64,000 nucleotides of DNA, taken from positions 28,029-92,028 of the forward strand of contig CAOKAE010000002.1 of NCBI GenBank assembly GCA_948466335.1, given 5' to 3'. The notes under the pieces are model-generated. The model saw only the letters and a program-made list of their open reading frames with translations, was not told the origin of the DNA and did no database searches. This document shows positions 3,969-36,971 of this stretch, in pieces. The stretch is from an uncultured Coriobacteriia bacterium (lineage in GTDB: Bacteria; Actinomycetota; Coriobacteriia; Coriobacteriales; QAMH01). The first letter of the stretch is position 1. Every line of letters starts with the position of its first letter. Position numbers and translations under genes: made by a program.

Positions 3969-6644
3969 TTACTTGGTGAGTTCCCAGTTGGACAGGTTCG
4001 CGTAGGCCTGATCCCACACGGTGTCGTGCTTGCCATCGTACTGGTCGACGGGAATCGCGTCATCGGTGCCGTCGGACGGATCGATGCAGGGGTACACCTT
4101 GCAGAGCAGACCGCGCGTGCACCAGGTAGCCGTCATCTGGTCGGCCTTGTCCGGGTCGTCGTCGACAAGCACGTTGCCGGCCGCGTCGAAGACGCCCTGG
4201 CTCCACGGCTCCTCGGCGGGAAGCTCGGGATACCACCAGCTGGGCGGAACCTGGACGACGCCCTCGGGGATGTCCCAGCCCACGTGGGCCTTCTGGCGGA
4301 TGCGGCCCATCGGGGTCTCGATCCAGATCCAGTCACCTTCCTTGATGTGCAGCTTGCGCGCATCGTTGAGGTGCATCCAGGTGTAGGGATAGGGCTCGAC
4401 CGTGCGCGTACCATGACCCGGCGTGCGGAACTCCGAATGGTACAGGGGGCTCACGCGGCCCGAGATTGTGAGACGCAGCGGATACTTCTTGGCCATCTCG
4501 GGGTCACCGAGCGGGGATTCCGGCTCGCGATAGACGGGAATCGGGTCGTAGTCGAGGTCCTCGAGCACCGAGGCGTAGATCTCGGCCTTGCGCGAATTGG
4601 TCGCGAATCCCATGATCTGCCCGTTGTCGAGGCGCTTGGCGTACTTGTAGTACTCGGTGGGATAGGGGAAGTACGTGCCCATGTTGACGGCCTTCTCGTA
4701 GTCCAGGTCGGGAACGCGCTCGACCGTGTACTCGATGGCCTGCTCGTAGGTCTCCCAGGGCCAGTCTTTCTCCTGGCCCATGGCGCAGCCCAGGGCGCGG
4801 AAGAAGTCGTAGTCGACGCGGCGCTCCTCGTAGGGCTCGACGCCACGATCGCCCACGGTGATGAAGTCCATGGAGTCCTCGGACGTGGTGCACAGCGGGC
4901 GCTCCATCCAGTCGCAGGCGGGCATGATGTAGTCGGCCAGCGCCGCCGTCGGCGTCTTCCAGTACTCGACCGAGACGAGCAGCTTGAGGTTCTTGAGGGC
5001 CTTGTACATCTTCTTGGTGTTGGGCGCCCAGGCAAGCGGATTGGATTCCCAGCAGATCATGGCCGTGATGGGATAGGGATCGCCATCGATCATGGCGTCC
5101 ATGACCAGCGAGGGCGAGCAGAGCATCTGATGCAGCATGGGACGGGGGACGCCGAACATCTTGCGATAGTTCTTGTCAATCATCTTGAAGCCCTTCCACG
5201 ACATGACGCGGAAGCGGTCGTTACCGATGAACTTGTCCTGGTTGGCCGGGTCCTGGAGCTCGGACAGCTCGAACTCGGCGTTGCGCACGGGATAGGTCTT
5301 CTCCTTGCCCACGGCGTTGGGGTCGCAGGGCATGCCGACGAACTCGCCGCCGGGATTATCGATGTTGCCGCACATGATGCGCAGGATGGTCTTGGCGATG
5401 CCGAAGCTCGAGGCGTTGGTGCCGTGCTGGTCACCACCGCCCAGACCCCAGATGATGCAGGCCGGGCCATTGGTGGCGTAGAGGTGCGCGGCGGCCTCGA
5501 TCTTGCGAACGGGCACGCCGGAAACCTTGGAGGCACGCTCGGGCGTGTACTCCTCCATGCGCTCGGCGATGGCGTCGAACACGGTCTTGCACTCGACCGT
5601 GGAGCCATCCTTGAGCGTGACGGTGTACGTGCCGTAGAGCTGGGCGTCGACGACGGTATCCTCGGAGGGCGTGTAGTAGCGGTTCTCGTCAGAGCACCAG
5701 CACAGCGGTGCACCCGTCTCGCCGTCCCACACCACGAAGTCCTCGTGCTTGCCGTCGGCCTCGACGTCGCTCGCACGCAGCAGCTTGCCCGTGTCGGCAC
5801 GAACCAGGAACACGGCGTTGGACCAGTACTTCAGGAAGTCCTCGTTGTAGAGCTTCTCGCGGATGACGTAGTGAATCCAGGAGAGGCAGATGATGCAGTC
5901 CGTGTTGGGATAGGGCTGCAGCCACTCGTCTGCCTGACCGGACTCGGTGATGCAGACGGGATCGACGACGATGAGCTGCGCGGGATCGGGCTCGTTGACG
6001 GTCGTGCGGCCGGAGATAACGCGCCAGAGCGGCGCCTCGGGCGCATAGGACTCCTGGCAGCGCTTGCCCCAGTTGACGATCGTGTGGGACTGCTGCGGGG
6101 AGGCCGGCATCATGGACTCGACGGGCCAACCGACCATGGCCATGTTGAGCGTGTAGTTCCAGCACCAGCAGATGGTGCCCGGGTCGATGACGTTGCCGGG
6201 ATTGCCCAGGAGGTTGGTGAAGCGGCTACGCGCCCACAGATGATCGGAGCGATACGTGCCCTCGGAGGCAACCAGCGTCTCGGGGCCGTATTCGTCGATG
6301 AGGGCCTGGAGCTTCTCGGCGATCTCCTTGATGGCCTGGTCGTAGGAAATCTGCTCCCACTTGTCCTCGCCACGCTCGCCCACGCGCTTGAGCGGATGGT
6401 TGATGCGCTTGGGATGGTAATGGAACTTGATCGCACGCTCGCCCTTCTTGCCCAGGCGGTTGCAGAGCACGGACCCTTCCGCGTCGTCGCCCCTGAGCTC
6501 GACGAGCCTGCCGGTCTTCGTGTCGACACCTGCGTAGATGCTGCAGTTCATGTGGCAGAAATGGCAGCGGGTGCGCCGCCAACGAACGCCGTTCTCATCG
6601 ACTGTGTTATTGGGCACGCCGGCCATAGATGGTGTATCTGACAT
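3969..6644 (-). CDS. molybdopterin (bis-MGD, DMSO-reductase-superfamily) oxidoreductase catalytic subunit, no twin-arginine signal
   Basis: About 891 aa. The start is set at MSDTPSMAG (ATG 6644) with GGGAGAG upstream. N-terminal FS0-type motif CHFCHMNC...C. No RR leader is seen by eye. The ORF-track start at 6740 adds a Cys-rich non-homologous extension. Confidence 0.85.
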   Translation of the reverse strand: MSDTPSMAGVPNNTVDENGVRWRRTRCHFCHMNCSIYAGVDTKTGRLVELRGDDAEGSVLCNRLGKKGERAIKFHYHPKRINHPLKRVGERGEDKWEQISYDQAIKEIAEKLQALIDEYGPETLVASEGTYRSDHLWARSRFTNLLGNPGNVIDPGTICWCWNYTLNMAMVGWPVESMMPASPQQSHTIVNWGKRCQESYAPEAPLWRVISGRTTVNEPDPAQLIVVDPVCITESGQADEWLQPYPNTDCIICLSWIHYVIREKLYNEDFLKYWSNAVFLVRADTGKLLRASDVEADGKHEDFVVWDGETGAPLCWCSDENRYYTPSEDTVVDAQLYGTYTVTLKDGSTVECKTVFDAIAERMEEYTPERASKVSGVPVRKIEAAAHLYATNGPACIIWGLGGGDQHGTNASSFGIAKTILRIMCGNIDNPGGEFVGMPCDPNAVGKEKTYPVRNAEFELSELQDPANQDKFIGNDRFRVMSWKGFKMIDKNYRKMFGVPRPMLHQMLCSPSLVMDAMIDGDPYPITAMICWESNPLAWAPNTKKMYKALKNLKLLVSVEYWKTPTAALADYIMPACDWMERPLCTTSEDSMDFITVGDRGVEPYEERRVDYDFFRALGCAMGQEKDWPWETYEQAIEYTVERVPDLDYEKAVNMGTYFPYPTEYYKYAKRLDNGQIMGFATNSRKAEIYASVLEDLDYDPIPVYREPESPLGDPEMAKKYPLRLTISGRVSPLYHSEFRTPGHGTRTVEPYPYTWMHLNDARKLHIKEGDWIWIETPMGRIRQKAHVGWDIPEGVVQVPPSWWYPELPAEEPWSQGVFDAAGNVLVDDDPDKADQMTATWCTRGLLCKVYPCIDPSDGTDDAIPVDQYDGKHDTVWDQAYANLSNWELTK

Positions 6645-6782
6645 GGCATGCTCTCCCTTCTCTTCTACTCTCCAGCCATTGACCTTGATGCGATGTCCTC
6701 GGCAGCACAAACTTTGGCAAGGTTGAACGCAGGCCCCCACATCACACCTGTTGAAAGCAGCATAAGAAGCATTCGTCCCGAG

Positions 6783-6842
6783 AAAAACGCCTTATCAATA
6801 CCAAATCATTGGGTAATGAACGGGGTACCGAAAGGGGTACCG
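6783..6842 (-). promoter_or_regulatory. conserved 60-nt upstream element with three GGGTA boxes at 12-bp spacing (candidate LAL-regulator operator/promoter)
   Basis: Colinear, gap-free match (42/60 by hand count) to 19676-19735. GGGTA occurs at 6811, 6823 and 6835. The element lies about 140-200 nt upstream of the Mo subunit start. Confidence 0.5.
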
Positions 6843-7134
6843 TTCCCAGTACGGGAATAGCTCTCTTTTGCACAAGACCGTGCCTTATCGAGAAATAACC
6901 CATCCCATTACCCTTTTTTTGGGACCGAAACAGACCTAACGCACAAAACGCCCGTCAACTAGCCTGATGTTGCCCTCGGAAATTCCGTGGGTTTGGCAAG
7001 GTGGGCTGCCCTTCATCGGCAGAAAGGCAACAACCGATCATCGTCGCGACAGTGTGCCGCGCGGCGGAATGCAGAAGGATGTTTCTCCCCAAGAAGCGAG
7101 AAGCCTTCTTTGCATTCTCGAGAGAGGGGATTAC

Positions 7135-31421: not shown

Positions 31422-32807
31422 TTACATCATGTTCTTGAGCTGGCTCAGGTCGATATCGCCCAAACCGGGAATGCCCATGCGCCTGCGGCGCTTGCCCTTC
31501 TTGCCGCTTTGCTGGTTCATCGCGCCCATCATCTTCTTGACCTGCTTGCGGGTCTCGTTGTAGCGCTTGATGAGCTGGTTGACCTGCTGAATCGACATGC
31601 CGCAGCCATCGGCGATGCGCTTGCGACGCGAACCGTTGAGCAGCGTGGGCTTGGCGCGTTCGGCCGGCGTCATCGAGTTGATGATTGCCTCGGTGCGGTC
31701 GAGCTCGTGCTCGTCGATCTGGCCCGCGTTGAGCGCCTTGTCGCCGCCGGGCAACGCGCTCACGAGCTTGCCGAGGCCACCCATCTTGCGGGTCTGGCCG
31801 ATGACCTGGAGGAAGTCGTTGAAGTCGAAGTCGGCGCGCGCAAGGCGCTCGGCCTCGGCCTCCTCCATCTCGCGGTCCTGAATCTCGATGGCGCGCTCGA
31901 TGACCGAGACGACGTCGCCCATGCCGAGGATGCGCTTGGCCATGCGGTCGGGATGGAATATCTCGAGGGAGTCGGGGCGTTCGCCCGCCGAGATGAACTC
32001 GATGGGCTTGCCCGTGACCTCGAGAATGGAGAGCGCGCCGCCACCGCGGGCATCGCCGTCCATCTTCGACATGATGACGCCGTCGAAGTCGACCTTCTCG
32101 GCAAACGCCGCGGCAACGTTGACGACATCCTGGCCGGTCATGGCATCGACGACCATGAGGATCTGGTCGGGTTCGACAGCGTCGCGAATCGCGACGGCCT
32201 CGTCCATCATCTCGTCATCGACATGCAGGCGGCCCGCCGTGTCGACGATGACAACGTCACGCAGGTTGTCGATGGCGTCGCGCACGCCCTCGGTGGCGAT
32301 CTTGACGGGGTCCTTGCCGTCGCCGCGATAGACGCGCACGTCCATCTCGTCGCCGAGCGTCTGCAGCTGGTCGGCCGCGGCGGGACGATACACGTCGCAG
32401 GCCACGAGCAGGGGGTTGTGGCCCTGCTTCTTCAGGCGGTAGGCGAGCTTGGCCGCAGCCGTCGTCTTACCGGAGCCCTGTAGGCCCACGAGCATGACGA
32501 CGCCGGGAATCCTGCTGCCGAAGGTGAGCTCGGCGGTCTTGCCGCCCAGGAGCTCGGTGAGCTCGTCGAGCACAATCTTGATGACGTTTTGGCCCGGCGT
32601 GAGCGAATCCATGACCTCGGCGGTCAGGCAACGCTCCTTGACGCGGCGCGTGAAGTTCTTGACGACCTTGTAGTTGACGTCTGCCTCGAGCAGCGCCATG
32701 CGAATCTCGCGAATGCCGTCGTTGATGTCGTCTTCGGTCAAGTGACCCTTGGACTTGAATCCGGAAAACGCCTTTTGCAGCTTGTCGGAAAGACTCTCGA
32801 ACATCAT
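31422..32807 (-). CDS. ffh: signal recognition particle protein Ffh
   Basis: NG domain (GLQGSGKTT, DTAGR, SKMDGDARGG) plus a Met-rich M domain. Confidence 0.95.
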   Translation of the reverse strand: MMFESLSDKLQKAFSGFKSKGHLTEDDINDGIREIRMALLEADVNYKVVKNFTRRVKERCLTAEVMDSLTPGQNVIKIVLDELTELLGGKTAELTFGSRIPGVVMLVGLQGSGKTTAAAKLAYRLKKQGHNPLLVACDVYRPAAADQLQTLGDEMDVRVYRGDGKDPVKIATEGVRDAIDNLRDVVIVDTAGRLHVDDEMMDEAVAIRDAVEPDQILMVVDAMTGQDVVNVAAAFAEKVDFDGVIMSKMDGDARGGGALSILEVTGKPIEFISAGERPDSLEIFHPDRMAKRILGMGDVVSVIERAIEIQDREMEEAEAERLARADFDFNDFLQVIGQTRKMGGLGKLVSALPGGDKALNAGQIDEHELDRTEAIINSMTPAERAKPTLLNGSRRKRIADGCGMSIQQVNQLIKRYNETRKQVKKMMGAMNQQSGKKGKRRRRMGIPGLGDIDLSQLKNMM

Positions 32808-32838
32808 TGCTCCTTATGAAAACCAGCGGCGCATCTTG
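32804..32838. repeat. 35-bp direct repeat, copy 1 (at the ffh start)
   Basis: TCATTGCTCCTTATGAAAACCAGCGGCGCATCTTG, identical to 35606-35640. Confidence 0.95.
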
Positions 32839-33007
32839 AATTCGCCAAAATCTCTGCAGCGAGATACTTGTCGCTGCGACAGTGGAGGTCAGCCACACCC
32901 TCGTCGATAAGAGGAAACAGCTCAGAATCGTAGAACACCTTCATGGCATCCTCGCTGCTCATGTCACCTATCTGGGCGATGAGCGAGATGATCCTCGCGT
33001 ACTTCAT
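32804..33007 (-). CDS. DUF3791-like small protein, copy b (C-terminus runs into repeat copy 1; stop overlaps ffh ATG)
   Basis: The start is set at MKYARIISLIAQIGDMSSEDAMKVFYDSELF (ATG 33007). It resembles copy a in size and pattern. Confidence 0.55.
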   Translation of the reverse strand: MKYARIISLIAQIGDMSSEDAMKVFYDSELFPLIDEGVADLHCRSDKYLAAEILANSRCAAGFHKEQ

Positions 33008-33036
33008 CTGCAAGACAGCTTGCTTGCCAGCATCGC

Positions 33037-33513
33037 TCACGAGGCCTCCCTTCCCTCGACAAAGGTCAGCAACATATCGAGTGCGCGTTGCGTCCGCATG
33101 CATATCTGGTCGTTGGGCTTAATGTAGATAAGACGTCCCAACGCCTCCTCCTCGGTTATCTCGCCCACAAAGAAAAGGTCGAGGGTGGTGAAAACCCTGT
33201 CGTCGGCAACGCCGCCGATGACCACGTCCCATTGGGTGTTGTCGTTTTCGTTGCGGCAGTCGAGGACAAACCGTATCCACTCGCTGTCGTAGGAATCGAA
33301 CTTCAGAACGTCGAGTTCGAGCAGGGCATCCTCGTCGAGCTCGTACTCGTTCACATAGGCTCTCGCGCCACGCCGCGTGAAGCGATTGGCGTAGTTCAGG
33401 GCCTGCTCCTCAAGCGTCGTTACGTAAAACCCGCGCCCAAAGTCGAGGGCGTCCCTAGAGTGTTCCACGTCTGGATGATCGACTATGCACTTGGAGGCAT
33501 GGAAGACCCTCAC
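33037..33513 (-). CDS. DUF3990-like protein
   Basis: 158 aa starting MRVFHAS...GRGFYVT.... The GTG start overlaps the upstream stop (GTGA). Confidence 0.65.
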   Translation of the reverse strand: MRVFHASKCIVDHPDVEHSRDALDFGRGFYVTTLEEQALNYANRFTRRGARAYVNEYELDEDALLELDVLKFDSYDSEWIRFVLDCRNENDNTQWDVVIGGVADDRVFTTLDLFFVGEITEEEALGRLIYIKPNDQICMRTQRALDMLLTFVEGREAS

Positions 33514-33725
33514 GCAACCAGCTCCTTCTCGCGCATGTAAGAGATGAGGTCATCCATCAGATAGTCCTTGCCGAAGGTGTGGAGGACATCATAGGAGGGA
33601 ACGATGTACTCGTAGAGAATCCCGCTCTCCTCGAGAAGATGGTAGACCGCGCGCTGCGACAAACCGAGGCGCTCGGAGAGGTTCCCTATGCAATACGTAA
33701 CGAACTCAATCTCTGCAGCACCCAT
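33510..33725 (-). CDS. DUF3791-like small protein, copy a
   Basis: 71 aa, MGAAEIEFVTYCIGNLSERLGLSQRAVYHLLEESGIL (HTH-like). Confidence 0.6.
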   Translation of the reverse strand: MGAAEIEFVTYCIGNLSERLGLSQRAVYHLLEESGILYEYIVPSYDVLHTFGKDYLMDDLISYMREKELVA

Positions 33726-33928
33726 GGGCTGCTCCGTTCTTTTCGACTTATACTGCCACTGCCAGCGAGGTCACTACCCCTCACCAACAGGCTCGCAGCG
33801 ATGAACCAGCTCAATTCTAGCAAGTTTCCTCATGCGGCAAAGCGTCATGTTTGCAACGAAAAGGTCAGGAAGCGCCTCCACATGGGCTTCTCTGTCTTTG
33901 CCGATTAAACCAACGGATACATAATCCG

Positions 33929-33937
33929 TGTTATAAT
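33929..33937 (+). promoter_or_regulatory. extended -10 (TGtTATAAT) followed by a TTAGCT..AGCTAA palindrome, upstream of the TA pair
   Basis: Read directly, 28 nt upstream of ATG 33965. Confidence 0.45.
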
Positions 33938-33964
33938 TAGCTTACCTTAGCTAAGGAGGTCGCC

Positions 33965-34210
33965 ATGTCACCGGTAACCATGCATGATGCCAAGACGAAT
34001 CTTTCCCGCTATGTCGCCCTTGTCGAGAGCGGAGCAGAAGAGCGCGTGGTGATCGCGCGTGGCGATACGCCTGCTGCCATGCTTGTTCCTTTTGTCCCGT
34101 TAGACACATCCAAGCGCTTGGATGTGGCCAAGGGGAAGTTCGTGGTGCCAGCAGACATCGACAAGCATAACGACGAGATTGCCGAGATCTTCGGCGAGGC
34201 TACCCTATGA
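33965..34210 (+). CDS. Phd/YefM-type antitoxin
   Basis: 81 aa starting MSPVTMHDAKTNLSRYVALVESG... The stop overlaps the toxin start (ATGA). Confidence 0.8.
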   Translation: MSPVTMHDAKTNLSRYVALVESGAEERVVIARGDTPAAMLVPFVPLDTSKRLDVAKGKFVVPADIDKHNDEIAEIFGEATL

Positions 34211-34617
34211 CGCGCTTGCTACTCGACACGCATGTCCTGCTGTTTTCGCTCGCCGAGTCGAGTCGCCTCGGACAGGACGCGCGTCTTCTCATAGCAAGTC
34301 CCGAAAACAGCGTCTTCTATAGCCCAGTCTCCCTTTGGGAAGTCGCAATAAAGCATGCGAAGCATCCCGAGGACATGCCGGTCTCACCGGATGAGCTTCT
34401 GCGATATTGCATCGAAGCGGGATATCGTGAAGCGCCCTTGACATCGGAACAGGTCTGCAAGCTATCGTCAATCGATGCCGATCCAGATAGCCCCATACAT
34501 TCCGACCCCTTCGATCGCATGCTCATCTGTCAGGCCATCGCTGAGAGCATGATATTGCTCACCTGCGACACAAAGATGCTCGCCTACGAAAACGAGCTCA
34601 TCTTGGATGCTAGGTAA
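34207..34617 (+). CDS. PIN-domain (VapC-like) toxin
   Basis: 136 aa with N-terminal LLLDTHVLL and downstream conserved acidic residues (SLWEVAIK, DPFDRMLI, LLTCD). Confidence 0.8.
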   Translation: MTRLLLDTHVLLFSLAESSRLGQDARLLIASPENSVFYSPVSLWEVAIKHAKHPEDMPVSPDELLRYCIEAGYREAPLTSEQVCKLSSIDADPDSPIHSDPFDRMLICQAIAESMILLTCDTKMLAYENELILDAR

Positions 34618-34653
34618 AAGCCAAGCTTTCTATTAAACAGCACAGAAAGCGTG

Positions 34654-35157
34654 TCATCGTCGCGGGGGCTTTCGCGAAACATAGCTTTGGCTTGCGTTAT
34701 ACACATTCGCCGTTTCGTTGAGTTGCTTGCACTCCTCGGCAGGTGACTCAGCGACATGGTGCGCACGTTCTCCCTCACGTTCATCATCCCATGCGCATTC
34801 GTTGATATTCCCGCTTGAATGCGAACGCCCGTACGATGGTTGATAGACTTGGTGTAAAGCTGGCATAGAAGGATTTGAGGCTGCGTCCTCATCCTTTCGC
34901 ATCTCCTCGTCATCTCTATGCTTCTTAGCACGAACATCCTCGTTCTCACCAGACGAACTTAGCAAGTGGCGCACTCCCATACGAATACAACGCGAAATCT
35001 TCAATACTAAGCACAAAAATCCCCCGCTAGATGAAGAGCTGTCATTATCCTCAACCAGAGCTTCATGCTGCGCTCTGCACGTGTTGATATCATCTGCAAC
35101 AGGTTCTTCTTCCAGTTTACATTCTCCCGCAGACCCTTTTTCATATCTGGCGCTCAT
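34654..35157 (-). CDS. hypothetical acidic/Ser-rich protein
   Basis: 167 aa from ATG 35157, preceded by AAAGGAG. No recognisable motif, AT-richer DNA and possibly non-coding. Confidence 0.35.
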   Translation of the reverse strand: MSARYEKGSAGECKLEEEPVADDINTCRAQHEALVEDNDSSSSSGGFLCLVLKISRCIRMGVRHLLSSSGENEDVRAKKHRDDEEMRKDEDAASNPSMPALHQVYQPSYGRSHSSGNINECAWDDEREGERAHHVAESPAEECKQLNETANVYNASQSYVSRKPPRR

Positions 35158-35404
35158 TCGAACTCCTTTGTCCGTTGAACACATCTGACAAAGCAATAAT
35201 ATAGGTCGCACTTGCATTGCTGGCGCAGAGCAAGCAGTGTCAACCCATGTATTACAAAGCACGAGTTCTTTACAGTGTGGAAATCAAAAAAGTGAGAGTG
35301 TTTCGACAATCAGTTTTTTCATAAAACGATAAAGGCATATCTACTTGTAGCTCTCCACCTTTGCCAAAACGGGCTTAGAGCAATCGCCAGGCAGCAAAGC
35401 GCAG

Positions 35405-35440
35405 CCATAAACAAGGAAGCCGCTTGGCAGAGCGGCTTCC
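35405..35440 (-). terminator. intrinsic terminator (serves ftsY and the orphan ftsY 3' end)
   Basis: Perfect 10-bp stem GGAAGCCGCT/AGCGGCTTCC followed by TTGTTTAT on the minus strand. Confidence 0.65.
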
Positions 35441-35464
35441 TCAAAGCAATCTGTGGCGTTCTGT

Positions 35465-35605
35465 TTACTTCACGCCGTACCAGCCGAAGTTTGTCAAACC
35501 GAGAGTGAGGTAGATATAGGTGAGCGGCGCCAAGATCTTTGGTTTAGGGGGAGATTTCTCGACTGCGCTCACTTCGTTCGCTTCGCTCGAAATGACAGAA
35601 GGCAG
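35465..35605 (-). pseudogene. orphan ftsY 3'-end-like fragment (repeat unit plus hydrophobic tail)
   Basis: Hand translation: LPSVISSEANEVSAVEKSPPKPKILAPLTYIYLTLGLTNFGWYGVK*. The first about 55 nt match ftsY 35789-35843 with about 6 differences. The frame is closed upstream by TGA. Confidence 0.55.
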
Positions 35606-35640
35606 TCATTGCTCCTTATGAAAACCAGCGGCGCATCTTG
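35606..35640. repeat. 35-bp direct repeat, copy 2 (true ftsY 3' end)
   Basis: Identical to 32804-32838. It encodes ...KMRRWFS* followed by GGAGCA ATGA. Confidence 0.95.
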
Positions 35641-36971
35641 TCGCGGAACGACTCTTGCTCTTCGGGCTCGGCGGCGGGCTCGGTCTCGGCGAACCACTCG
35701 TCTGCCGTCATGGAGGTCACTTCTGTTTCCTCGTCCTCGGGGGCCTCGGGCTCGTCTTCGGAATCATCAGCGAGCTCAGCCTCGTCGAGAGATTTCTCGA
35801 CTTCACTCACTTCGTTCGCTTCGCTCGAAATGGCAGAAGCGGACGTTACTTCATCCACGTTGCTCGAAATGACAGAGGGAGGCTCTTCGTCCACGTTGCT
35901 CGAAATGACAGAGGGCGCCACTTCGTTCGTCTCGCCCGAAATGACAGTGGGCGCAGCCTCGTTCGCTTCCTCCTGAACGACAGAAGCGGGCTCTTCACTT
36001 TCCTGTATGTCATCTCGACCGGAGGTGCCGTCAGGCACCGGAGTGGAGAGATCTCCGCCCTCCTCGACCTCGTCACGCATCTCGCCGAAGAGCGCCTCGG
36101 CGTACTCGCGCGGCTCGAAGGGTTGCAGGTCCTCGATGCCCTCGCCCACGCCCACGCGCAGGATGGGCAGCCCGAGCTCGTGGCTCACCGCCACGGCGAT
36201 GCCGCCCTTGGCCGTGCCATCGAGCTTGGTCATGATGACGCCGTCCAAATCGAGTGCCTTGTCGAACTCGCGCGCCTGCTGCAGGCCGTTCTGGCCCGTC
36301 GTCGCATCGATGACGAGCACGGTCTTCACGTCGACGTCCGCACGCTTGCGGGTGACGTTCACGACCTTCTGCAGCTCGCGCATGAGCTCGTCGGAGGTAT
36401 GCAGGCGGCCCGAGGTGTCGATGAGCACGAGGTCGCTACCCAGCTGCTCGGCGCGCTCGACGACGTCGTAGCACACGCTGGCCGGGTCGCTTCCGCGTTC
36501 GCGCTTCACGACTTCCACGCCGCTGCGCTCGCCCCAGATGTCCAACTGCTCGATGGCAGCCGCGCGGAAGGTATCGGCCGAGCCGATGAGCACCTTGCGG
36601 CCGCCGGCGTGGGCCTGGTTGGCGAGCTTGCCCACCGTCGTCGTCTTACCCGCGCCGTTGATGCCCACAAAAAGCACGCAGACGGGGTTCATGCGGAAGG
36701 GGTCGGGATCGGGCTCGGCAAAGAGACCGCTTATCTCGTCGGCGAGCATGTCGAGCACGGCGTAGGCATCGGGCAGTGCCTTGCGCGTCGCCTGGTCACG
36801 CAGGCGGTCGATGACCTCCATGGTCGCCTGGGCGCCCAGATCGCTCAGGATGAGCGTTTCCTCCAGGTCATCCCAGAAATCCTCGTCGAGCTTGGGACCA
36901 CGACGGAAGAGCACGTTCATTCGCTCGTTGAACTTCGCCCTGCTTCGATTGATCTTGTCTTTGAACGCCAT
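35616..36971 (-). CDS. ftsY: signal recognition particle receptor FtsY with acidic repeat-containing C-terminal extension
   Basis: NG domain at the N-terminus (GINGAGKTTT, DTSGR, TKLDGTAKGG), followed by about 150 acidic residues. Confidence 0.95.
   Translation of the reverse strand: MAFKDKINRSRAKFNERMNVLFRRGPKLDEDFWDDLEETLILSDLGAQATMEVIDRLRDQATRKALPDAYAVLDMLADEISGLFAEPDPDPFRMNPVCVLFVGINGAGKTTTVGKLANQAHAGGRKVLIGSADTFRAAAIEQLDIWGERSGVEVVKRERGSDPASVCYDVVERAEQLGSDLVLIDTSGRLHTSDELMRELQKVVNVTRKRADVDVKTVLVIDATTGQNGLQQAREFDKALDLDGVIMTKLDGTAKGGIAVAVSHELGLPILRVGVGEGIEDLQPFEPREYAEALFGEMRDEVEEGGDLSTPVPDGTSGRDDIQESEEPASVVQEEANEAAPTVISGETNEVAPSVISSNVDEEPPSVISSNVDEVTSASAISSEANEVSEVEKSLDEAELADDSEDEPEAPEDEETEVTSMTADEWFAETEPAAEPEEQESFRDKMRRWFS
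35805..35984 (-). repeat. five in-frame tandem 36-nt units inside ftsY
   Basis: The units translate to ASAISSEANEVS, SVISSNVDEVTS, SVISSNVDEEPP, TVISGETNEVAP and SVVQEEANEAAP. Confidence 0.9.

Follow-up and report, generated by a model that had tools for sequence, protein, structure and literature searches.

INTRODUCTION

The three-gene cassette analyzed here (the trio) occupies positions 33725 to 32804 on the minus strand of a 64,000-nucleotide stretch of DNA (the window) from an uncultured Coriobacteriia bacterium (Coriobacteriales, QAMH01; assembly GCA_948466335.1, contig CAOKAE010000002.1, positions 28,029 to 92,028 of the forward strand). Its closest described relatives are the loci catalogued as PDC-M13. 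The PDC systems are phage defense candidates listed in PADLOC. Their selection relied on "guilt-by-embedding", with BREX, DISARM, and type I restriction-modification (RM) loci as the embedding systems (Payne, Hughes, Fineran, & Jackson, 2024, bioRxiv 10.1101/2024.01.29.577857), and a rumen survey counted 3,324 PDC-M13 loci across 6,530 genomes (PMC13356809). The middle gene of the trio encodes a DUF3990 protein. As a preliminary description of this locus had stated, DUF3990 is among the families of the Pfam ADP-ribosyl clan of ADP-ribosyltransferases (ARTs) (PMC7955679), and it also constitutes the C-terminal toxin domain of Rhs effectors of the type VI secretion system (PMC4524185, PMC10763514, PMC12165300).

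Among bacteria of the gut and the rumen, PDC-M13 is very common. If the target of DUF3990 and its control by two partner proteins were shown, both of these large DUF families and a toxin domain of Rhs effectors would gain a function. DarTG and CmdTAC are anti-phage ART toxins, which are silenced by co-encoded partners and released on infection, and CmdTAC is tripartite. The RES and MbcT toxins degrade NAD+. From our analysis of the Coriobacteriia locus, we arrived at the view, held with somewhat more than even confidence, that the trio is a toxin-antitoxin or abortive-infection module, in which the DUF3990 protein would be an NAD+-using toxin-like effector of the ART fold that is restrained by its two small neighbors. 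In this view, the toxin-antitoxin-like or ART-like idea of the preliminary description is retained as far as fold and genomic context go.

RESULTS

Identity and gene structure of the trio

Gene A (33725..33510, minus strand) encodes a protein of 71 amino acids (aa), which matched PF12668 (DUF3791) in Pfam with E=1.5e-22. Gene B (33513..33037, minus strand, 158 aa) matched PF13151 (DUF3990) with E=7.9e-48 and a score of 162 bits (cut-off 32.2). Gene C (33040..32804, minus strand, 78 aa) encodes a divergent DUF3791 paralogue, and the evidence for this assignment is given below. When we searched PADLOC-DB, A matched PDC-M13A (E=7.1e-27), B matched PDC-M13B (E=1.7e-57), and C matched PDC-M13C (E=6.6e-23). 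Judged by these profile matches, the trio is an ordinary member of the catalogued PDC-M13. The preliminary description had called the trio uncharacterized, but it was already catalogued as a candidate for phage defense. No NCBIfam model matched A, B, or C, and searches of PHROGs with the trio proteins yielded chance-level matches only. In the whole source genome, A and C are the only DUF3791 genes and B is the only DUF3990 gene.

The preliminary description reported three tightly packed co-directional genes with a GTGA overlap between the first two of them. We found that all three genes are indeed located on the minus strand and that A and B share GTGA at 33513-33510. The description also gave a 30-nt gap between B and C, which assumed ATG 33006 as start codon of C. 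As the alignments and the upstream sequence indicate, gene C almost certainly starts at GTG 33040 instead, and with this start there is no gap: the GTG of C lies over the TGA stop of B and forms a second GTGA overlap. Translated from GTG 33040, C can be aligned from residue 1 with 32 homologues (MSDAGKQAVLQMKYARII compared with MSEESKQII..AQCARII), and an 85%-identical orthologue carries an ATG at the corresponding codon, which is the start chosen by the gene caller. A GGGAGG Shine-Dalgarno sequence is present 4-5 nt upstream of GTG 33040, and no Shine-Dalgarno-like sequence was found upstream of ATG 33006. The 4-nt B/C overlap seen here recurs in 62 of 78 homologous loci. Small adjacent genes with translational-coupling overlaps at both junctions (A/B and B/C) constitute a type II toxin-antitoxin-like organization.

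Upstream of A, a 146-bp segment (33726..33871, minus strand), which presumably contains the promoter/operator region, travels with the trio module. The entire block 33871..32000 forms a single alignment of 84% identity with two contigs (L094, L096), in both of which another gene lies upstream of the orthologous trio. A scan for the sigma-70 consensus upstream of A on the minus strand did not reveal a promoter. Compared with the 85%-identical orthologue in L094, dN/dS ratios of 0.06 (A), 0.095 (B), and 0.054 (C) were calculated, which indicates purifying selection on all three genes. The cassette is intact.

Predicted fold and candidate active site of the DUF3990 protein

The confident AlphaFold2 model of B (pLDDT 93.2, pTM 0.87) involves strands at residues 2-7, 29-32, 53-59, 69-71, and 97-100 and two later ones at 136-139 and 149-156. 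When this model was compared with the PDB using Foldseek, the top match was the RES toxin of the Xre-RES complex (9r35, probability 0.99, E=1.4e-3, TM 0.47/0.50). ParT and MbcT were the next matches, and these were followed by exotoxin A, cholix, and PARP catalytic domains. Thus, all meaningful PDB fold matches of B are ART-fold toxins or PARPs and we infer that B is an ART-fold enzyme, which is what the preliminary description had suspected.

The three motifs that had been noted earlier are present in B, with FHAS at residues 4-7, GRGFYVT at residues 26-32, and VNEYELDED at residues 54-62. To define conserved residues, 137 homologues of B were collected and 50 of them, down to 34% identity, were aligned. 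Here, we found that H5, D24, G26, G28, F29, Y30, W79, R87, D96, G100, A103, and D105 are invariant and that the conservation of Y57 is 90% or higher. In the VNEYELDED motif, the glutamates E56 and E58 are variable. In the model, H5 is located on strand 1, Y30 on strand 2, and D96 directly before strand 5. The positions of H5 and Y30 correspond to the classical first two catalytic/NAD-binding positions of ARTs, and the third catalytic position of these enzymes is found at the start of strand 5. Since D96 is invariant and directly precedes this strand, it is the most likely candidate for the third catalytic residue of B according to alignment and model, with D105 and D24 as alternatives. For the H-Y-E triad suggested in the preliminary description, this means that the histidine and the tyrosine are invariant, but the glutamate is variable, and from the conservation pattern an H-Y-D site appears more likely than an H-Y-E site. 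The consensus LYHGS...GRGFYxT of B resembles the HGS...GxGxYFA motifs of PARPs, a likeness that we take to be a lead and not a test.

Among viral models, one close DUF3990-like protein was found (TM 0.85), and further viral fold matches included polyvalent and PolyVal-ART proteins and giant-virus PARP-like proteins. Some members of the B family matched ART-PolyVal (PF18760) with E=2e-5 over residues 1-48, which carry the H...GxGxY part, and this match was below the gathering score.

The DUF3791 partners

In the preliminary description, both partners were called HTH-like DUF3791 proteins. The family assignment is clear for A. For C, it is sub-threshold in Pfam (E=0.017-0.03), but it was recovered at the profile level: 27 of the 33 members of the C family match PF12668, the best of them with E=1.5e-9, and hhalign aligned the A profile with the C profile at E=4e-4 over a common core of (D)LH(T/C)xSxxY(L/I). 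Although pairwise BLASTP detected no similarity between A and C, these profile data identify C as a divergent DUF3791 paralogue of A. A match of the C profile to the "CAP REPEAT" of PDB entry 8vd6 (E=3.7e-7), in which no single stretch passed, was treated as a compositional artefact.

The HTH-like character was not confirmed. The AlphaFold2 model of A is a confident (pLDDT 95.6) all-helical structure of five helices, for which there is no significant fold or sequence match in the PDB; a search of PDB sequences with the A profile gave nothing significant (E>0.4). HTH-type matches of A in Pfam and PADLOC (ANT, Csa3, mad1; E 0.004-0.1) and its Foldseek matches to HTH proteins (E>3) were at chance level, and the stretch LSERLGLSQRAVYHLL may be HTH-like, judged by eye. 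UPF0122/YlxM is a small protein sited upstream of ffh in Firmicutes, and its chance-level match to A (E=0.51) was rejected as a link.

In two independent samples (L122, 2501-3422; L123, 158-1079), we found an in-frame fusion of A and B (P0089, 234 aa), which is followed by a 79-aa gene. This natural fusion is an argument that A and B cooperate physically. The fusion locus adjoins HipA_C-like and RelB-like genes.

Conservation and genomic context

A scan of species-representative genomes yielded at least 563 encoded relatives, and 80 loci were kept. Homologues of A, B, and C were each detectable in 78-79 of these 80 loci, and the order A-B-C was found in at least 76 of them, with hosts from Bacteroidota, Bacillota, and Actinomycetota (Bacteroidales, Lachnospiraceae and other Clostridia, Coriobacteriia). 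The 4-nt A/B overlap was present in 68 loci. At least one apparent exception to the gene order (L002) does contain C, which is masked by an over-long ORF call. The A-B-C arrangement is far beyond chance, since unrelated phyla share it at no fewer than 76 of the 80 loci. Among the relatives of our source organism, the distribution of DUF3990 is patchy: 12 of 41 carry it, including 5 of 12 genomes of the same genus, and there it is found at other loci.

The 127 immediate neighbors of the trio loci belong to 132 Pfam families. Defense genes among these neighbors include seven PglX/type IIG genes, and PglZ, GmrSD, Vsr, PDC-S01, and AbiEii-like ATPases were also seen. In Brotaphodocola sp. (L048, 144-9356), the genes BrxC-PglX-A-B-C-PglZ are co-directional with gaps of 8-76 nt, and two other loci (L022, L040) are similar. 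Thus, the embedding in BREX operons, which is the basis of the PDC-M13 listing, is reproduced in our dataset. DUF3990 is carried by 84 plasmids and four phage-like contigs. On the Bacteroides fragilis plasmid pBF9343 (L111, 2055-4115), a 149-aa DUF3791 protein, DUF3990, and an 86-aa hypothetical protein are encoded one after the other and are followed by a zeta-toxin gene.

A different arrangement was observed in a same-genus genome (G005; L106, 1489-2893), where the gene of a 230-aa DUF3990 paralogue overlaps a 245-aa gene, the product of which carries a C-terminal Xre-type HTH domain (HTH_3, E=1.1e-8).

The islet between ftsY and ffh

In the window, the trio is part of an islet. Directly upstream of this islet lies ftsY (35616..36971, minus strand), an ORF encoding the receptor of the signal recognition particle (SRP), and directly downstream of C lies ffh (31422..32807, minus strand), which was identified as SRP54 by its ORF and translation, with the SRP54 Pfam domains found on the orthologue. 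Perfect 35-bp direct repeats (family D3) bracket 2,802 bp. Copy 1 is located at 32804..32838 and copy 2 at 35606..35640, where ftsY really ends. The minus-strand sequence of the repeat, CAAGATGCGCCGCTGGTTTTCATAAGGAGCAATGA, comprises the last eight codons and the stop of ftsY, the ribosome-binding site AAGGAG, and the ATG(A) with which ffh begins. It can be seen that the last ten codons of C (RCAAGFHKEQ*) are the duplicated ftsY end in another frame, and in the alignment of the 32 homologues this piece falls in the naturally variable tail of the C family. The GC content of the islet is 0.49-0.57 compared with 0.635 in the ftsY/ffh flanks.

In eight genomes of the same genus (G002, G003, G004, G006, G007, G010, G011, G012), the junction is empty, which means that a single 35-mer (0-1 mismatch) is present and ftsY abuts ffh. 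Occupied ftsY-ffh sites carry the junction 35-mer twice. As these comparisons indicate, the islet is an insertion at the ftsY-ffh junction that was accompanied by a 35-bp duplication, and because of this duplication the ribosome-binding site and the start codon of ffh were kept intact. The preliminary description had noted that the stop of C overlaps the start of ffh, and the two genes do share ATGA at 32807-32804. However, the translational chaining onto ffh that was read into this overlap is a by-product of the junction duplication, since the junction is duplicated and the eight same-genus genomes have empty sites. Moreover, the downstream neighbors of the trio differ at other loci, and the C-ffh overlap is therefore not a functional link.

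The islet consists of three modules. The trio module (32839-33871, minus strand) includes the 146 bp upstream of A. The second module (33902-34621, plus strand) is the VapBC-type pair that had been described in the same islet, and we identified it as a Phd/YefM-like antitoxin (33965..34210, PhdYeFM E=2e-6) and a PIN toxin (34207..34617, E=1.6e-8), which overlap by 4 nt on the plus strand. The third module (34622..35605) is composed of about 930 bp of low GC content (0.485) and a dispersed repeat of about 50 nt (35551-35602). The ORFs between 34622 and 35550 lack Pfam matches and are of odd composition, and an Rfam search over the islet gave no match; this segment may represent non-coding cargo or what is left of a decayed gene. 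The dispersed repeat occurs in at least 45 copies in this genome and in many more in genomes of the same genus, and its copy in the islet abuts copy 2 of the 35-bp repeat. Relatives of it are found inside ftsY (35789-35839 and 36-nt tandem units at 35851-35989), where they form the tandem repeats of its acidic C-terminal coding tail. What had earlier been noted as a displaced alternative 3' end of ftsY is this dispersed element and not a displaced gene end.

In related strains the same site is differently filled. In G001, the VapBC-like module alone (90% identity) is located between two copies of the 35-mer. In G005 (L100), the junction carries a DUF5648-RCC1 protein and a 225-aa ORF without assigned family. 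In two metagenomic contigs with the 85%-identical orthologue (L095, L096), a DUF5648-LRR protein and A-B-C precede ffh, and L095 also shows ftsY. These varied contents argue that the islet is modular, and from this comparison the ftsY-stop/ffh-start junction looks like a hotspot for small cargo in this genus. With its perfect 35-bp repeats and its empty-site relatives, the present copy is a clean example of a recent insertion and adds little beyond that. As a result of the insertion, ffh, which is essential, now directly follows a toxin-like cassette.

Mobility of the cassette

In Adlercreutzia mucosicola (L002), a 135-nt direct repeat (98% identity; 5590-5724 and 6732-6866) brackets the trio alone, which directly precedes ruvC. 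At 6 of 71 other trio loci, the trio is flanked by exact repeats of at least 20 nt (23-47 nt), compared with 1 of 63 controls. These data suggest a cassette of about 1 kb without a recombinase of its own, which inserts with target-derived duplications. Circularization and Campbell-type recombination may be the route of its movement, and such a route would explain the target-derived repeats of 23-135 nt seen here and in a minority of the other loci. The cassette is a horizontally acquired module of about 1 kb.

DISCUSSION

Proposed mechanism

In the mechanism we propose, B would be an NAD+-using effector of the ART fold, with a site formed by H5, Y30, and an invariant Asp, which is most likely D96. 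Translational coupling would keep the synthesis of A and C in a fixed ratio to that of B, and most likely the two proteins would bind B and keep it inactive; alternatively, they might serve as sensor or regulator of B. B would be released by a trigger, for example when a phage infects the cell or when the cassette is lost, and the freed protein would then either transfer ADP-ribose to a protein or nucleic-acid target or use up NAD+, which would lead to growth arrest. In the present genome, the trio was inserted at the ftsY-stop/ffh-start junction as part of a 2.8-kb composite islet, together with the VapBC-like pair and the 1-kb segment. Toxicity, NAD+ chemistry, neutralization by A and C, and the anti-phage role are elements of this mechanism that we infer. 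A narrower version, which we put forward tentatively and with limited confidence, is that A and C together act on an H-Y-D ART as a heteromeric clamp or sensor and that a phage cue frees the enzyme for a nucleic-acid or translation target. If this were true, PDC-M13 would represent a new class of tripartite ART-based abortive infection, which would be among the most abundant in gut anaerobes.

Several observations weigh against the toxin-antitoxin/abortive-infection interpretation. The fold matches of B are modest (TM 0.45-0.50, best E=1.4e-3), PDB sequence searches with B (phmmer and the 50-sequence profile) gave no match at E<=10, and the third catalytic residue is deduced from conservation and strand order alone. 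For A, Foldseek detected nothing significant among PDB folds (best E=3.4). A stable A-B fusion fits poorly with the classic labile-antitoxin model. As to genomic context, the link to conflict systems expected from the preliminary description was seen in BREX operons, RM neighbors, and plasmids, but most neighbors elsewhere are non-defense genes and the islet in our window is located among housekeeping genes and not in a defense island. Finally, the authors of the source paper call their 145 PDC systems untested candidates (bioRxiv 10.1101/2024.01.29.577857).

Alternative explanations

The trio might be a plain addiction or stabilization toxin-antitoxin system, the loss of which kills or arrests the cell, so that plasmids and islets are stabilized and no anti-phage role is involved. 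Points in its favor are the frequency of DUF3990 trios on Bacteroides and Clostridium plasmids (the 84 plasmid records), the zeta-toxin gene next to the trio on pBF9343, the surroundings of our trio, which shares its small islet with a VapBC-like pair and has housekeeping genes on either side, and the HipA-like and RelB-like genes at the P0089 locus. A point against it is the repeated occurrence of the trio within BREX operons and next to RM and GmrSD genes, which is the association behind the PADLOC listing. We consider pure addiction unlikely. Many toxin-antitoxin systems do both jobs, and it is thus not fully exclusive of the abortive-infection interpretation.

The fold comparison raises another scenario, in which B is not a transferase but degrades NAD+ as RES and MbcT do, by glycohydrolase or phosphorylase activity, and arrests growth by NAD+ depletion. 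The closest solved folds are those of the RES toxin in the Xre-RES complex and of MbcT, and ParT also ranks high. However, the TM values to RES and MbcT are just 0.45-0.50 and B lacks a Pfam RES match. Moreover, the motifs of B (an H-G-S-like strand 1 and GRGFY on strand 2) are nearer to those of the H-Y transferases (PARP, diphtheria-toxin-like, and ART-PolyVal) than to R-E-S. On balance, this kind of chemistry appears rather improbable for B.

We see little probability that B is a non-toxic modifying or repair ART, which acts on small molecules or antibiotics like Arr or removes RNA 2'-phosphates like Tpt1, with A and C as regulators. It is true that the clan has non-toxic members (PTS_2-RNA is listed; PMC7955679) and that a weak viral fold match to an Arr-like rifampin ART was obtained (rank 22). 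However, DUF3990 is the toxic tip of Rhs effectors, the trio has a toxin-antitoxin-like organization with two tiny coupled partners, and it is found on plasmids and inside defense operons with a patchy accessory distribution.

That the trio is tied to the SRP pathway and modifies or regulates Ffh, FtsY, or 4.5S RNA, as the overlap of the C stop with the ffh start and the recurrence of the trio upstream of ffh in contigs of related strains might suggest, is very improbable and largely refuted on genomic grounds, since the junction arose by duplication of 35 bp from the native ftsY-ffh boundary, ftsY abuts ffh without an insert in eight same-genus genomes, other strains carry unrelated cargo at this site (VapBC alone, the DUF5648-RCC1 protein), and the diverse neighbors at other loci include no SRP family among those listed.

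Comparison with known systems

The best structural matches to B come from the toxin-antitoxin systems Xre-RES (9r35), ParST (6d0h, 6d0i), and MbcTA (6fkg). Like the trio, these systems place a small ART-fold toxin (about 150-180 aa) beside a small neutralizing partner, and the DUF3990 paralogue that is paired with an Xre-HTH protein in G005 adds to the likeness with Xre-RES. On the other hand, B has no RES match and shows an H...Y...D pattern instead of R-E-S, so that the likeness is one of fold only. In addition, the trio involves two DUF3791 paralogues as partners. Searches of A and C against Pfam gave no HTH_3 or Xre match, and no Xre/COG5642 relationship was detectable.

The regulatory logic of DarTG and CmdTAC would, by analogy, be the one we propose for the trio. 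However, Pfam and PADLOC searches with the trio gave no match to DarT (DUF4433) or a macrodomain antitoxin, the trio has no SecB-like chaperone, and DarT appeared among the viral fold matches of B just weakly (E=0.22). Unlike the partners in DarTG and CmdTAC, those of the trio are two tiny paralogous helical proteins.

In the Rhs effectors Rhs5-CT of Serratia marcescens and RhsA-CT of Enterobacter bugandensis, DUF3990 occupies the position of the killing module of polymorphic toxins. These domains are fused to Rhs/PAAR scaffolds and have unrelated immunity genes, whereas B is a standalone protein with DUF3791 partners. ART-PolyVal (PF18760), a domain of polyvalent proteins from phages and conjugative elements, is linked to the B family by the sub-threshold match over the first 48 residues, and PolyVal ARTs were also seen in the viral fold comparison. 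Polyvalent proteins are of giant size, contain multiple domains, and are injected by mobile elements, whereas the trio is a three-gene cellular cassette.

The closest correspondence is with PDC-M13 itself, for which PDC-M10 and PDC-M42 are related models. PDC-M13 and our trio share the A/B/C models, the gene order, the strand, and the overlaps, and we found nothing substantive that separates them. The present copy is distinguished by its location in a housekeeping operon and by the tail of C, which is derived from duplicated host sequence.

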